Shown in pieces: positions 1 to 45,102 of a stretch of 64,000 nucleotides of DNA (positions are counted from its first letter, which is position 1; every line of letters begins with the position of its first letter). Made by a program: the position numbers and the translations under genes. Where the stretch lies: the NCBI RefSeq assembly GCF_024223415.1, contig NZ_CP100501.1; one strand, written 5' to 3'. The notes under the pieces are model-generated. The model saw only the letters and a program-made list of their open reading frames with translations. It did no database searches and had not been told where the DNA came from. The DNA is from Escherichia coli (lineage in GTDB: Bacteria; Pseudomonadota; Gammaproteobacteria; Enterobacterales; Enterobacteriaceae).

Positions 1-873
1 GTGGCGGCCCTGAACCAGACCTCATTTACTGAAAGCACATACCGTCAGGTAAAGAACCCGAATCCGGTGTTCACACCCCGTGAAGATGCCGGAACGCTGA
101 AGTTCTGCGAAAAACTGATGGAAAAGGCCGTGGGCTTCACCTCCCGTTTTGATTTTGCCGCGCATGTGGCGTATGCCCGTTCGCGCGGCCTGCGCCGGCG
201 TATGCCGCCGGTGCTGCGCCGCCGGGCGATTGATGCGCTGCTGCAGGGGCTGTGTTTCCACTATGACCCGCTGGCCAACCGCGTGCAGTGCTCCATCACC
301 ACGCTGGCCATTGAGTGCGGACTGGCGACGGAGTCTGAGGCCGGGAAACTCTCCATCACCCGTGCCACCCGTGCCCTGAAGTTCCTGTCTGAGCTGGGGC
401 TGATAACCTACCAGACGGAATACGACCCGACAATTGGCTGTAACATCCCGACCGACATCACGTTCACGCCGGCACTGTTTGACTCACTCGATATCTCAGA
501 AGAGGCAGTGGCTTCCGCACGCCGCAGCCGCGTGGAATGGGAAAACAGGCTGCGCAAAAAGCAGGGGATGGATGCGCTGGGTATGGATGAACTGATAGCG
601 AGGGCCTGGCGTTTTGTGCGCGAGCGTTTCCGCAGTTATCAGGCAGAGCTTAAGTCCCACGGCATGAAACGTGCCCGTGCGCGCCGCGATGCAGGCAGGA
701 CCCGTCAGGACATTGTCACCCTGGTGAAACGGCAGCTGACACGTGAAATCGCGGAAGGGCGTTTCCGCGGAAGCCTGGAGGCCGTGAAGCGCGAAATCGA
801 CCGTCGCGTGAAGGAACGCATGATAATGTCGCGGAACAACAACTACACACGGCTGGCCACTGCCTCACCCTGA
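1..873 (+). CDS. repA1: IncFII replication initiator RepA1 (start at window edge, possibly 5'-partial)
   Basis: Translation (..[44 protein letters not shown]) closely matches remembered R100/IncFII RepA1; ORF begins at base 1 with GTG. Confidence 0.9.
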
Positions 874-1048: not shown

Positions 1049-1057
1049 TTATCCACA
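1049..1057. promoter_or_regulatory. DnaA box TTATCCACA within IncFII-type oriR region (about 900-1260, AT-rich stretch at 1140-1200)
   Basis: Exact DnaA box consensus about 175 bp downstream of repA1 stop, followed by AT-rich tract; matches IncFII ori organisation. Confidence 0.5.
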
Positions 1058-1486
1058 TTTAACTGCAAGGGACTTCTCCGTAAGGTTACAACCGTTCATG
1101 CTATAAAGCGCCAGCCGCAGGCGTTACAGGGTGCAATGTTTCTTTTAAACCCCAGTAATATATTTCCTTTAAACTACTTAATTACTTCCATTTAAAAAAA
1201 AGACCTGTTCAGTGCCTGTCCTGTGGACAGACAAATATGCACCTCCCACGCTGACGCGCGGGCCCCAAACCTCACCGTTCTGGAACCACAACAAAAAACA
1301 TCAGAAATAAAAACACCACACAAACGCAGCACCGTGCCCACCCCTCATAACTGAAAAGCGAGGCCGCCCCCGCCCGAAGGGCGGGAACAACATCGCTTTT
1401 AATTATGAATGTTGTAACTACATCATCATCGCTGCCAGTCTTCTGGCTGGAAGTCCTCAGTACACGCTCGTAAGCGGCCCTCACGG

Positions 1487-1692
1487 CCCGCTAACGCGGA
1501 GATACGCCCCGACTTCGGGTAAACCCTCGTCGGGACCACTCCGACCGCGCACAGAAGCTCTCTCATGGCTGAAAGCGGGTATGGCTTAGCAGGGTGGGGA
1601 TGGGTAAGGTGAAATCTATCAATCAGTGCCGGCTTACGCCGGGCTTCGGCGGTTTTACTCTTGTGCCATATGTAGCTACATTATGCCGCCTT
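1487..1692. repeat. About 205-bp structured direct repeat, copy A (copy B at 44255-44462)
   Basis: Near-identical to 44255-44462 by direct comparison; contains inverted repeats GTCCCGAC..GTCGGGAC and CCGGC..GCCGG. Confidence 0.85.
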
Positions 1693-1827
1693 CCATGCCG
1701 CTCACGCGGCATCAGAACAATAAAACCAGCATTAAATGTATTTGCAAAAGTATGAGTAATACAGACTTGTTAACCGGTCCTTTCAGAGGTATCTTTAAGA
1801 CTTGTTAAATAGTCTCAAAGGTACGTT

Positions 1828-2079
1828 ATGCCTAACATCATTCTGTCTGACACCAGTGCAAGTGTCAGTGAACTGAAAAAAAATCCTATGGCTACAGTCA
1901 GTGCCGGAGATGGTTATCCTGTCGCCATTCTTAACCGGAATCAGCCGGCATTCTACTGTGTGCCTGCGGAACTCTATGAAAGGATGCTTGATGCGCTGGA
2001 TGACCAGGAACTGGTGAAACTGGTTACTGAACGCAGCAATCAGCCACTGCATGATGTGGACCTGGACAGTTATTTATGA
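1828..2079 (+). CDS. stbD: Phd/YefM-type antitoxin (StbD/RelB-like)
   Basis: 83-aa ORF immediately upstream of and overlapping (ATGA) a RelE-like toxin; small acidic C-terminus typical of antitoxins. Confidence 0.8.
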   Translation: MPNIILSDTSASVSELKKNPMATVSAGDGYPVAILNRNQPAFYCVPAELYERMLDALDDQELVKLVTERSNQPLHDVDLDSYL

Positions 2080-2363
2080 CTTATACAGTAAAATTCAGGG
2101 ATGATGCGCTCAAAGAATGGCTGAAACTGGATAAATCCATTCAACAGCAGTTTGCGAAAAAACTAAAGAAATGCAGCGAAAATCCTCATATTCCTTCCGC
2201 AAAACTGCGTGGATTAAAAGACTGCTACAAAATCAAACTTCGCGCATCGGGGTTTCGTCTGGTCTATCAGGTTATTGATGACATGCTAATTATTGCGGTT
2301 GTCGCGGTAGGTAAACGTGAACGTAGTAACGTTTATAATCTCGCCAGTGAGAGAATGAGATAG
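2076..2363 (+). CDS. stbE: RelE/StbE-family mRNA interferase toxin
   Basis: 95 aa; KLRGLKDCYKIKLRASGFRLVYQV..VGKRERS matches remembered E. coli RelE. Confidence 0.9.
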   Translation: MTYTVKFRDDALKEWLKLDKSIQQQFAKKLKKCSENPHIPSAKLRGLKDCYKIKLRASGFRLVYQVIDDMLIIAVVAVGKRERSNVYNLASERMR

Positions 2364-3879: not shown

Positions 3880-4197
3880 TTGATGATTACTGTTATTATT
3901 TCTGAGGTGGATGGCTGGCGTGAATGGAAACACCGCGCCCGAACAAAGGATGCACAGACAGCCATCATCCGGGCTATGAATAAACATTTTCCACGATCTT
4001 ACAATTTTATCCCTGATGATATTGATAATGCACCTGTATTATTTGCAGCTGTAACACGTACACCGAACGTGAAAATAACCGGTCATATCTGGAAACCTAT
4101 GTGGAACAGGGGAATTTGCTGGAACGTCAAAGGTCCGCCAGTAATCATCACGCTCATCCAAGGGGCCGCTTGGAATTCGGAAAATAAACCACGTTAA
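3880..4197 (+). CDS. Hypothetical protein (105 aa)
   Basis: ORF only; low-GC context; no recognisable motif. Confidence 0.35.
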   Translation: MMITVIISEVDGWREWKHRARTKDAQTAIIRAMNKHFPRSYNFIPDDIDNAPVLFAAVTRTPNVKITGHIWKPMWNRGICWNVKGPPVIITLIQGAAWNSENKPR

Positions 4198-43451: not shown

Positions 43452-44042
43452 CTATACAGTAACAGTTTGCTGTTTCGCTCTAACTCTCAGAATTGTTTGC
43501 CGTGTGGTTCGGAATTCCCTGGCAATAGCACTTATACTTGCTCCAGACTTAATGTGTTCGAGTACCTTCTGTTTTTGTTCTTCATTTAATACCGGTGGGC
43601 GACCAAAACGTTTTCCTGCATCCCGTGCTCTTGCTATCCCTGAATAAGTTCGTTCAAGTAAAAGATCTCGTTCAAATTCAGCGACCGCTGAAATCACTTG
43701 CATTGTCATTTTTCCTGCCGGACTGGTCAGATCAACACCACCTAATGCCAGGCAATGTACCCTGATGCCAGATTCGGTCAGTTGCTCCACTGTTTTCCTG
43801 ATATCCATTGCATTACGACCGAGGCGATCCAGTTTTGTGACTATCAATACATCGCCACTTTCCAGACGATCAAGCAACCGGTTAAAACCTGGACGTTCAC
43901 TGGCTGCTACTGATCCACTAATTTGTTCTTCGATTATTCGTTGGGGTCTGACGTTAAAACCCGCGCTTTCGATTTCCCGACGTTGATTTTCGGTCGTCTG
44001 TTCCAGAGTGGAAACCCGACAATAGGCAAAAATTCGAGACAT
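43452..44042 (-). CDS. Serine recombinase (resolvase/invertase family)
   Basis: N-terminal catalytic motif [10 protein letters not shown]-terminal HTH; 196 aa. Confidence 0.85.
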
Positions 44043-44069
44043 AGTGAGATCTTCTGTACGAAATGGGTG

Positions 44070-44180
44070 TACATATTATAATGCATGTCCGAAAGTAATT
44101 TCGCTGACTTTCGGATATATCTGTTTAACAATGTCCGAAACCGGTCGATTTCGGACACCAAAACCACTGTTGTCCCGCCA
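44070..44180. promoter_or_regulatory. res-like recombination site upstream of the serine recombinase gene
   Basis: Inverted repeats TGTCCGAAA..TTTCGGATA and TGTCCGAAACCGGTCGATTTCGGACA resembling resolvase binding half-sites. Confidence 0.5.
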
Positions 44181-44254
44181 TTCTGGCGATTCCTGAAAGC
44201 CCTTTGGCTAAAAAATAGTCTTAACATGGTTTATTTTCCGAATTCCAAACTGAC

Positions 44255-44462
44255 CCCGCTAACGCGGAGATACGTCCCGACTTCGGGTAAACCCTCGTCG
44301 GGACCACTCCGACCGCGCACAGAAGCTCTCTCATGGCTGAAAGCGGGTATGGCTTAGCAGGGCTGGGGATGGGTAAGGTGAAATCTATCAATCAGTACCG
44401 GCTTACGCCGGGCTTCGGCGGTTTTACTCCTGTGCCATATGCAACAACGGAGTGCCGCCTTA
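44255..44462. repeat. About 205-bp structured direct repeat, copy B
   Basis: See copy A at 1487-1692. Confidence 0.85.
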
Positions 44463-44542
44463 CATGCGCTGACGCGCATTATTTGCCTTGTTCCGTCTGA
44501 AACTAATCACTATGATTAAATATGATTAACAACTAATCGGGT

Positions 44543-44827
44543 ATGCAAATGAAAAACAATACCGCACAGGCAACAAAAGTCATTACCGCGCATGTGCCAT
44601 TACCAATGGCTGATAAAGTCGACCAGATGGCCGCCAGACTGGAACGCTCCCGGGGCTGGGTTATCAAACAGGCGCTTTCTGCATGGCTTGCCCAGGAGGA
44701 GGAGCGTAATCGCCTGACGCTGGAAGCCCTGGACGATGTGAAATCCGGACAGGTTATCGACCATCAGGCTGTACAGGCCTGGGCGGACAGCCTCAGTACT
44801 GACAATCCGTTACCGGTGCCACGCTGA
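44543..44827 (+). CDS. RHH (CopG/ParD-like) antitoxin
   Basis: 94 aa; upstream of and contiguous with a ParE/RelE-fold toxin gene. Confidence 0.7.
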   Translation: MQMKNNTAQATKVITAHVPLPMADKVDQMAARLERSRGWVIKQALSAWLAQEEERNRLTLEALDDVKSGQVIDHQAVQAWADSLSTDNPLPVPR

Positions 44828-45102
44828 TGGAACTGAAGTGGACCAGTAAGGCGCTTTCTGATTTGGCGCGGTTATATGATTTTCTGGTGCTGGCCAGTAA
44901 ACCTGCGGCCACCAGAACGGTGCAGTCCCTGACACAGGCACCGGTCATTCTGTTAACTCATCCACGTATGGGAGAACAGTTGTTTCAGTTTGAACCCAGG
45001 GAGGTCAGACGGATTTTTGCTGGCGAGTACGAAATCCGTTACGAACTTAATGGCCAGACTATTTATGTATTGCGCCTGTGGCACACACGAGAAAACAGGT
45101 AG
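44827..45102 (+). CDS. ParE/RelE-superfamily toxin
   Basis: 91 aa; YEIRYELNGQTIYVLRLWHTRE is typical of ParE/RelE C-termini. Confidence 0.75.
   Translation: MELKWTSKALSDLARLYDFLVLASKPAATRTVQSLTQAPVILLTHPRMGEQLFQFEPREVRRIFAGEYEIRYELNGQTIYVLRLWHTRENR

Follow-up and report, generated by a model that had tools for sequence, protein, structure and literature searches.

A duplicated plasmid repeat that probably corresponds to the single-strand priming region of IncFII/IncI-type replicons

A sequence that occurs twice on one plasmid, each time ahead of a different toxin–antitoxin operon, raises the question of which of its neighbours it serves. We examined such a repeat in a 64,000-nucleotide stretch of Escherichia coli DNA (contig NZ_CP100501.1; hereafter the window), whose source plasmid is typed in PLSDB as IncK2/Z. 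A sequence-only reading had described a 205-bp structured direct repeat, tied it to the two operons and offered several functions for it: a single-strand initiation site, a small RNA, a shared regulatory leader or a recombination target. Our analysis supports the first of these, on the grounds of position, family, structure and a G4-like layout. The repeat is probably the single-strand initiation (priming) region of IncFII/IncI-type theta replicons, the 'G site' that lies in the old 'repA4' region of R1/R100.

Two direct copies of about 95% identity had been claimed, and both were recovered. Copy A (1487–1712) and copy B (44255–44480) share an orientation and are ~94% identical; blastn gives 93.4% over 227 nt between 1487–1712 and 44255–44479. 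The repeat search resolves this into a 97% identical left part (1487–1599 against 44255–44367) and a 90% identical right part (1592–1698 against 44361–44467), with a single 1-nt indel between the copies near 1595. Since the matches reach 1712 and 44479, the repeat is ~225 bp long and not 205 bp. A profile built from a 20-member family finds only two matches in the 64-kb window, one at 1459–1713 (E 9e-69) and one at 44255–44479 (E 1e-58, profile positions 30–253), and no further piece of the repeat longer than 13 nt occurs in the window besides copies A and B. PLSDB lists a third place for NZ_CP127318.1, a record that is not identical to the window (93.5% at the far end); it was found neither in that record's 94 kb outside the window nor in the window. 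Strong inverted repeats, also noted earlier, are present in both copies: CCGGCTTACGCCGG lies at 1629–1642 in copy A and at 44398–44411 in copy B, and GTCCCGAC..GTCGGGAC, perfect in copy B, has the copy A counterpart GCCCCGAC..GTCGGGAC. Small open reading frames overlap the repeat, but the family alignment is dominated by non-triplet indels and compensatory stem changes. These count against a protein-coding role and agree with the earlier view that no protein ORF is conserved.

Copy A sits in an IncFII-family replicon. The initiator gene repA (1–873, plus strand) matches NCBIfam TIGR03474 (incFII_RepA) with 563 bits, and its product is 87% identical to R100 RepA1. The oriR region (1049–1240, plus strand) starts with the DnaA box TTATCCACA at 1049–1057 and is 84% identical to the repA-ori-downstream region of R100; we drew its extent from the 188-bp oriR of R1, which we take to apply here. 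A G+C-rich hairpin followed by a T-run at 1363–1391 on the minus strand was picked up by a terminator scan and shows compensatory arm changes relative to pTA108. Next comes a Ter (Tus-binding) consensus, GAATGTTGTAACTA, at 1407–1420 on the plus strand, the sole match to GNRNGTTGTAAYKA in 64 kb, where 0.02 were expected; copy B is without a Ter site. At the family level the element spans ~1461–1712 and forms the right-hand part of a conserved module covering 1241–1712. A Phd/YefM antitoxin and RelE/StbE toxin pair resembling stbDE (1828–2363, plus strand; RefSeq annotation of an identical region and TIGR02385 RelE_StbE) follows outside the element, with stbD starting at 1828. Copy A thus lies between oriR and the stbDE-like pair, and copy B before an RHH/ParE operon, as had been reported. 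The repeats end 63–115 bp before the antitoxin start codons.

Searching other plasmids showed that the element follows the replicon and not the toxin–antitoxin genes. It is present in at least 5000 PLSDB plasmids, typically 1481–1695 bp from the repA start, and of 28 diverse Enterobacterales IncFII-type loci, nearly all carry it downstream of repA. In R100 it occupies 90263–90518, between oriR and tir, where 239 of 256 positions are identical (93%; profile E 2e-70). The distance from oriR is ~230–480 bp and the order of parts is alike in R100, pTA108, R64 and 28 other loci. What comes next differs between plasmids: stbDE here, RHH/ParE in pTA108, tir in R100 and a regulator in R64. Homology among plasmids of different cargo stops at the element's right edge. 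The earlier framing, in which the element belonged to toxin–antitoxin operons, therefore does not hold. IncI1 plasmids extend the pattern beyond one initiator class. R64 carries the same 474-bp block, comprising terminator hairpin, Ter and both domains of the element described below, at 93.9% identity to window positions 1241–1712 and ~370–850 bp downstream of repZ. In contrast, the initiator and origin proper of ColIb-P9/R64 are unrelated, RepZ sharing only 24% local identity with the RepA encoded here. To judge from these alignments, conservation of the putative priming region exceeds that of both initiator gene and origin, and the region is common to replicons with unrelated initiators.

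The element consists of two domains that fold separately and whose pairing is conserved. Across the family, 96.4% of instances of 41 predicted pairs are paired, and ten pairs are changed on both sides compared with 2.0 +/- 1.3 in shuffles (0 of 500 reach ten); controls with a slid register gave 28–51% pairing. After the register of stem I was corrected, 12 of 48 pairs were compensatory. The left domain of copy A (1464–1550, minus strand) is a three-way junction supported by its single-stranded DNA fold, pair counts and double changes. It comprises a closing stem (1464–1467/1547–1550), hairpin P4 (1469–1496) and hairpin P2/P3 (1497–1543), and is the best-conserved stretch of the whole replicon: in 30-nt windows, mean pairwise identity at 1471–1500 is 0.93, above every repA or oriR window. 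A small linker hairpin, M2 (1567–1577, minus strand), has two of its four pairs changed on both sides across the family. The two domains are separable, as profile searches found several replicons that hold only the left one and some plasmids that duplicate only the right one.

The right domain (1629–1712) contains three stem-loops, each backed by compensatory changes, followed on the minus strand by CACTG in copy A and TACTG in copy B. Stem-loop I (1629–1642, minus strand; CCGGC-GTAA-GCCGG) is 100% paired in 20 sequences, with two of five pairs compensatory. Its minus-strand loop has the form G-N-A or G-N-N-A in all 20 sequences (GAA, GTA, GCA, GGA or GTAA), with N taking all four bases, so that a GCGNAGC or GCGNNAGC mini-hairpin is formed in every member; the heptamer by itself is not rare, with 31 occurrences in the window against 43 expected. 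Stem-loop II (1648–1690, minus strand) has a GGCG/CGCC closing stem, 100% paired and changed from C-G to U-A in three sequences, around a variable, internally paired insert. Stem-loop III (1695–1712, minus strand; ATGCCGC-GTGA-GCGGCAT) has three of seven pairs changed on both sides, and its end is the right edge of the conserved element, as conservation collapses past ~1715. Minus-strand folds of 1612–1716 and 44381–44485 each gave three hairpins (z -2.8 and -3.1). Two nucleotides 3' of stem-loop I lies a CTG (1624–1626, minus strand; ...CCGGCGTAAGCCGGCACTG), ~390 bp past the right end of oriR, from which a primer is predicted to start opposite T1625 and run rightwards in the plus sense. This CTG is found in both window copies, R100, R64 and pTA108, that is, in E. 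coli/Shigella/Salmonella-type copies, and in Hafnia locus L018, and in no other sampled genus. An alternative candidate primase start is the CTG at 1590–1592 (minus strand), whose alignment columns (C125, T126, G127) are fixed in 20 of 20 family members.

Loop signatures and folding energies point to the minus strand as the active one. The consensus fold scores -48.4 on the minus strand and -38.6 on the plus strand, and the left domain reaches -28.3 kcal/mol (z -4.07) as minus-strand single-stranded DNA compared with -19.9 (z -2.0) as plus strand. Two nearly fixed positions form G.T pairs on the minus strand only, being C.A on the plus strand; one of them is Watson–Crick in L018 and copy B. 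The P4 loop on the minus strand reads G-T-N-A with N free. Right-domain energies are alike on both strands, and folds of the whole element do not stand out from shuffles (z -1.2 and -0.3); only the domains folded separately do. We take the minus strand to be the leading-strand template because replication of R1/R100 presumably runs rightward and unidirectionally.

The layout of the right domain recalls a well-described priming site. The oric of phage G4 consists of three stem-loops followed by a CTG, starts synthesis at the T and requires only primase and SSB (PMC6783573), and a mini-hairpin motif has been reported in its hairpin I (PMC13037366). Here too three stem-loops lie within ~90–110 nt on one strand, stem-loop I is capped by a GCG(N)NAGC-type mini-hairpin, and a CTG follows a few nucleotides 3' of it, in the context (C/T)ACTG where G4 has CTACTG. 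The two also differ. Stems are shorter in the plasmid element (5 bp in stem I versus 8 in G4), the CTG by stem I is not kept outside E. coli-type copies and Hafnia L018, and the element resides in a double-stranded theta replicon, in which exposure by DnaB is needed. G4 lacks an equivalent of the left domain, a larger and better-conserved three-way junction located on the template 3' of the predicted start; the analogy therefore covers only ~40% of the element. The family profile had no match, and no significant sequence similarity, at the G4 locus. A 9-nt plus-strand match to G4, CGGAGATAC, is expected ~0.2 times by chance and was set aside.

From these features we propose the following mechanism. 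RepA and DnaA would open oriR, and DnaB would unwind rightwards and expose the minus strand, the leading-strand template. The right domain would then fold into its three stem-loops and keep SSB off, allowing DnaG primase to begin an RNA primer at the CTG just 3' of stem-loop I (T1625) or at the invariant CTG (1592–1590). From this primer Pol III would synthesise the leading strand to the right. As for the left domain, it is most likely part of the same host-factor assembly, through SSB phasing or as a second priming or primosome signal. Taken as a whole, block 1241–1712, with its terminator hairpin, Ter and left and right domains, would serve as a start/terminus cassette using host proteins, and for that reason could remain ~94% identical across replicons with unrelated initiators.

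The finding is real but already known and ordinary, in that the element is the repA4/leading-strand-start region of R100. Masai and Arai (1989) reportedly placed the G site ~400 bp downstream of oriR and found it to act with primase alone, Bernander et al. (1992) are said to have located the in vivo start, and Jiang et al. (1993) is a further reference on the R1/R100 G site. A segment of R64 is likewise said to have been characterised as a G4-type ssi by Tanaka et al. (1992). Copy A occupies the same place as the R1/R100 (NR1) G site, past oriR, after Ter and before the first accessory gene; it is orthologous, lies in an IncFII-family replicon and shows no substantive difference. Copy B does differ, being detached from repA and oriR and without the first ~26 nt. 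The sequence-only reading had named membership of a known element as what would undo its proposal, and this is effectively what we find: the element matches, at 93% identity, the repA4 region of R100 described in PMC4398462. That region is said to hold ter sites in R100-type replicons and is reported as needed for stable maintenance, with a TraDIS requirement for 'repA4' in pEC958 (PMC4398462).

Why, then, does the window hold a second copy? Homology begins abruptly at 44255, at profile position 30. The left domain is truncated (44255–44311, minus strand), with P2/P3 (44265–44311) intact and the closing stem and half of P4 missing, and it folds weakly (-15.9, z -1.9). The right domain is complete (44393–44479, minus strand; -22.3 kcal/mol as single-stranded DNA, z -3.08), with TACTG (CTG at 44393–44395) and stem-loops I (44398–44411), II (44417–44459) and III (44464–44479). 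Copy B has no repA or oriR upstream and is flanked within 43452–45102 by a serine recombinase gene (43452–44042, minus strand) and by genes for an RHH antitoxin and RelE/ParE toxin (44543–45102, plus strand), as annotated in a 99.8% identical region of NZ_CP032263.1. Together with this toxin–antitoxin pair it is collinear with what lies to the right of oriR in pTA108; the homology starts at 44255 and extends across the RHH gene, but leaves out the left flank, which is unrelated. The recombinase junction is common to only 95 of the 5000 best-scoring PLSDB records. The last ~109 bp of the left flank recur near colicin immunity genes in other plasmids, and we looked for a transposon end or res crossover that would explain the junction and identified none. 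Orphan copies lacking repA also occur in two other loci, L043 and L045. By these comparisons, copy B appears to be an orphan relic. It would stem from another IncFII-type replicon (pO157/pTA108 type), of which the right part survives together with the RHH/ParE module; repA, oriR and Ter, along with the first ~26 nt of the element, would have gone when this piece joined the serine-recombinase segment. With an intact right domain on the strand that conjugation is predicted to transfer, copy B could still prime.

The F plasmid offers a further setting for detached domains. Signals of the ssi type were reportedly described there by Nomura et al. (1991). Blastn against F found no match, and only weak, split profile matches were obtained (E 9e-6 and 9e-10): a right-domain relative at 65396–65528, next to oriT, whose minus strand is the transferred strand, and a degenerate left-domain relative at 40689–40786. 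Stem I is there a bare GCGAAGC mini-hairpin with no adjacent CTG.

Other readings of the element deserve weighing against the priming region. One would make the left domain, perhaps the whole element, a phiX174-type PriA-dependent primosome assembly site that acts on the plus strand, the lagging-strand template, and loads DnaB and primase, leaving the right domain alone as the G site. AAGCGG has been described as a consensus of n' (PriA) recognition sites, and it occurs twice on the plus strand (1472–1477 and 1573–1578), the first occurrence being invariant in the family; this lead, however, was noticed after the fact. In hairpin P4, four G.T pairs at helix ends are compatible with the plus strand alone and favour it, but on the minus strand the left domain gains 8 kcal/mol in stability, and the minus-strand G.T positions and G-T-N-A loop also speak against a plus-strand site. 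Two ssi signals were reportedly found in an R1 derivative by Bahk et al. (1988), although to our knowledge R1 replication does not need the PriA/DnaT primosome. Also in favour are the separability of the domains, seen in left-only replicons, right-only duplications and the F plasmid with each alone, and the label 'ssiA (primosome assembly site)' given to a part of the R1 replicon in a miniR1 design paper (PMC10989972). We regard this reading as improbable. It seems very unlikely that the element specifies a structured RNA, be it a small RNA or a 5' leader common to both toxin–antitoxin operons. In favour of one, covarying hairpins suit RNA as well as single-stranded DNA, the terminator-like minus-strand hairpin (1391–1363) is situated downstream, and a plus-strand hairpin with a T-run is found at 1637–1651. 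That plus-strand T-run, however, is absent outside E. coli-type copies, and a terminator scan around both copies found no conserved terminator in the element. Rfam returned no match to the element at the gathering threshold over the whole window, and noise only (E >1) when 1350–1850 was searched at E up to 10. No promoter-like hexamer pair lies within 1461–1712 or 44255–44480, nor adjoining them, on either strand, and neither copy holds a hexamer pair of the Frpo type, in which a hairpin of single-stranded DNA rebuilds -35 and -10 sites. The promoter-like sites near the copies all lie outside the repeat, either within stbD or in the interval that separates copy B from the RHH gene. Conservation stops at 1712, ahead of the toxin–antitoxin promoters; the downstream genes differ, being unrelated to toxin–antitoxin systems in R100 and R64; and the position is fixed relative to oriR and to no gene.

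That the repeat is primarily a recombination substrate, a hinge for cargo exchange or for deletion of the 42.7-kb interval, we consider just as hard to credit. Direct copies of ~225 bp and 94% identity could support RecA-dependent deletion, the product of which, repA-oriR-element-RHH/ParE, is the pTA108 arrangement; cross-plasmid homology with different cargo ends at the element's right edge; and the 5000 best-scoring PLSDB records contain 5547 places, ~10% more places than records. Yet the element yielded neither a recombinase core site nor a crossover motif, copy B breaks off on its left within a hairpin and not at an element boundary, and the adjacent serine recombinase has its own upstream region, unrelated to the element. 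Strong purifying selection, compensatory changes and the fixed distance from oriR would also be left unexplained. Recombination between the copies, as suggested earlier, is thus possible but would be a by-product. We give still less weight to the idea that a protein of the host or plasmid, acting for instance in termination, partition or copy control, binds the conserved blocks as duplex DNA and that the hairpins are incidental palindromes. Long invariant unpaired runs (GCTAACGCGGAGATAC and CCACTCCGAC) and the adjoining Tus/Ter site would fit it, but compensatory double changes keep pairing and not sequence, and the hairpins are asymmetric, with bulges and G.T pairs, unlike dyad-symmetric operators. 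A Rep-specific site is excluded, as the element is common to replicons with unrelated initiators.

A priming region thus remains our preferred reading of the element. A tentative variant, which we think unlikely but less so than the alternatives above, concerns the left domain, which might be a distinct, uncharacterised single-stranded DNA element outside the classical G site, recognised by a host factor and exchangeable among replicons with unrelated initiators within the 474-bp start/terminus cassette. Its ultra-conserved junction would then sit on the template of the leading strand, with the Ter site on one side and the leading-strand start on the other. The host factor might, for instance, serve to complete gaps, to restart replication or to terminate it when a round ends.

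Our results leave the current understanding of these replicons unchanged and sharpen an old picture: the region has two separable domains, only one of which is G4 oric-like, and the function of the left domain is now a cleanly testable question. Thousands of plasmid records leave this ~250-bp block without annotation or mislabel it as 'hypothetical protein' or repA4. The block is a marker for where IncF/IncI replication starts and ends, so that its recognition keeps orphan copies from being misread as new regulatory RNAs or elements linked to toxin–antitoxin systems.

The two copies noticed in the sequence-only reading are real and lie in the same orientation, copy A from 1487 to ~1712 and copy B from 44255 to ~44480. 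A repeat search returned them as two adjoining blocks, 97% and 90% identical, blastn aligned them at 93.4% identity over 227 nt, and a profile of 20 relatives matched the 64-kb window in exactly two places, 1459-1713 and 44255-44479; no further piece longer than 13 nt matches elsewhere in the window. The profile match to copy B begins only at profile position 30 and, because the family-level element starts at ~1461, copy B lacks its first ~26 nt. The quoted inverted repeats and the proposed neighbours were also found: copy A has repA, a DnaA box and oriR upstream and a Phd/YefM-RelE pair downstream, copy B lies between a serine recombinase and an RHH-RelE/ParE pair, and the element contains no conserved ORF, as had been said. 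Other direct repeats in the window are 20603-20738/29291-29426 (98% identical), 5904-6182/7242-7520 (74%) and 6406-6601/43210-43405 (96%), the last ending ~250 bp before copy B's recombinase. Matches to the ALIL pseudoknot (RF01497; + strand, 19142-19258 and 38132-38218) fall inside ~0.7-kb direct repeats (18803-19534/37792-38504, 92-97% identical), presumably two related insertion-sequence copies.

The element is an already known component of IncF/IncI replication. A 214-nt query matched at least 5000 records of a plasmid collection at 90-95% identity, those listed being mostly from Escherichia, Klebsiella, Salmonella and Shigella; in matched records opening at repA, it typically lies 1481-1695 bp from the record start. 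RepA in the window belongs to the IncFII family of initiators and shares 87% identity with R100 RepA1; R100 also carries the element, at 93% identity, between oriR and tir (90263-90518). Despite this RepA, the near-identical plasmid NZ_CP127318.1 (93.5% over the last 2 kb of the window) is typed IncK2/Z in PLSDB; neither the window nor the remainder of that plasmid yielded a RepZ-like gene. Of 28 loci that RepA searches brought up in other Enterobacterales species, nearly all have the element downstream of repA at the same distance, with 70-80% identity. Across these replicons, the best-conserved 30-nt windows of the repA-ori-downstream region fall at 1471-1560 (mean pairwise identity 0.93-0.82), above every repA or oriR window, and conservation of the element ends at ~1715. 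A tie to toxin-antitoxin (TA) operons was not supported, the element's neighbour being tir in R100 and a regulator in R64. Both copies precede TA operons because TA modules commonly adjoin the basic replicon and copy B travelled with its own.

Comparison of the relatives supports a defined fold. The left domain (1464-1550) is a three-way junction of a closing stem (1464-1467 with 1547-1550), hairpin P4 (1469-1496) and hairpin P2/P3 (1497-1543); the right domain (1629-1712) comprises stem-loops I (1629-1642), II (1648-1690) and III (1695-1712). In the - strand alignment, the 41 proposed pairs were 96.4% paired and 10 showed changes in both partners; 500 shuffles gave 2.0 +/- 1.3 such pairs and never reached 10. 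Sliding the partners by 1-3 columns gave 28-51% pairing and 1-4 such pairs. In its correct register, stem I pairs fully (100%) and includes two compensatory pairs, bringing the total to 12 of 48; hairpin P2 is invariant and uninformative either way. The two domains are separable. Four loci (L010, L024, L029 and L032) keep the left domain with a different right part, two carry a ~160 bp insert between the domains (L007, 4735-4900; L015, 4751-4911), and two have the right domain alone in tandem duplicate (L017, 4791-4892; L026, 4805-4881). In the F plasmid, a degenerate relative of the left domain lies at 40.7 kb near RepFIB/pif (L005, 40689-40786), and a relative of the right domain adjoins oriT (65396-65528; L034, 15396-15528), with its - strand on the transferred strand.

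Among the functions proposed from the sequence, single-strand initiation (ssi) is the one our results support. The phage G4 origin consists of three stem-loops, and primase, helped only by SSB, initiates at the T of a CTG 3' of them (PMC6783573). In the G4 record (primer 3970-3997, origin 3998), stem-loop I on the viral strand is followed by CTACTG; likewise, on the window's - strand the order is III-II-I and then CACTG (copy A) or TACTG (copy B). The family profile, however, detects no similarity in sequence between the element and G4, and the resemblance is architectural only. On this layout, a + sense primer would begin opposite T1625, ~390 bp past oriR's right end, and be extended to the right, leaving oriR behind. 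Masai and Arai reportedly located the R1 G site ~400 bp downstream of oriR in 1989, with primase alone priming the leading strand, and Bernander et al. reportedly confirmed this start in vivo in 1992; together with the identity to R100, these findings support a putative R1-type G site. A CTG beside stem I is limited to the E. coli-type copies and a single plasmid from Hafnia; the CTG at 1592-1590 (- strand) is invariant in 20 of 20 sequences, and either may be the true start. The small-RNA and regulatory-leader options gained no footing, as no Rfam family matches the element and it contains neither a promoter nor a conserved terminator, and the recombination-target option is unlikely, no recombinase site having been found.

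The - strand is the more likely active strand, short of proof. For the left domain as single-stranded DNA, the folding energy is -28.3 kcal/mol on the - strand (z -4.1) versus -19.9 on the + strand (z -2.0), and for the family consensus -48.4 versus -38.6. At two almost invariant positions that depart from Watson-Crick pairing, the - strand has G.T where the + strand has C.A; one of these becomes Watson-Crick in copy B and, with an adjacent compensatory change, in the comparison locus L018. On the - strand, the P4 loop reads G-T-N-A and the stem I loop G-N-A or G-N-N-A in 20 of 20 sequences, N taking every base; GCGNAGC/GCGNNAGC is a very stable DNA mini-hairpin described for G4 origin hairpin I (PMC13037366). 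The + strand, on the other hand, is the only one compatible with four G.T pairs at helix ends in P4, and for the right domain the two strands fold about equally well. The left domain could instead act on the + strand as a candidate PriA-type assembly site, since AAGCGG, a motif of n' sites, occurs there twice. The left domain is the most conserved part of the replicon. The repA4 region is reported to be necessary for the plasmid to be inherited stably, and a transposon-insertion screen scored it as required (PMC4398462). A perfect match to the Ter (Tus-binding) consensus GAATGTTGTAACTA, the only one in the window against 0.02 expected, separates oriR from the element at 1407-1420 (+ strand). 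If its non-permissive face is towards oriR, as we take it to be, a fork that has circled the plasmid would be halted at Ter, shortly ahead of the leading-strand start. The left domain sits between Ter and the predicted start, and so in the stretch of leading-strand template that is single-stranded longest; it may phase SSB for primase, provide a second priming signal or serve gap completion.

Copy B is a fragment of another IncFII-type replicon carried with its TA module, and the duplication is a mosaic relic. Rightwards it is continuous with the RHH/ParE module, both matching the post-oriR segment of the pO157-like pTA108; leftwards, homology stops abruptly at 44255, inside hairpin P4. The recombinase-element junction occurs in 95 of the best 5000 records. 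The ~109 bp directly left of copy B (44146-44254) recur without the recombinase in ColV/ColBM-type plasmids by colicin immunity genes, so the junction region is itself mosaic. The contigs L043 (where it follows an IS66 element) and L045 likewise hold an orphan copy lacking repA, and among the plasmid-collection matches listed, places exceed records by about a tenth. In copy B the right domain is intact. The + strand carries the leading-region genes (62-64 kb), and in F and ColIb-P9 such genes are transcribed from the entering strand; if that applies here, the - strand is transferred and both copies could prime complementary-strand synthesis in the recipient. Their shared orientation, with n=2, carries no statistical weight.

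Copy A belongs to a larger unit, a 474-bp block (1241-1712) that is 93.9% identical to R64 (IncI1; L039, 1856-2329), whose RepZ shows only 24% local identity to the window's RepA. Within it, a G+C-rich, terminator-like hairpin with a T-run (1391-1363, - strand), the arms of which show compensatory changes in pTA108, lies between oriR and Ter and might shield oriR against leftward transcription; Ter, the left domain and then the right domain complete the block. Because such identity spans replicons with unrelated initiators, it is best explained by a block that would rely on host proteins, not the plasmid's own Rep. The block behaves as a putative start/terminus cassette exchangeable between IncFII-type and IncI1 replicons.
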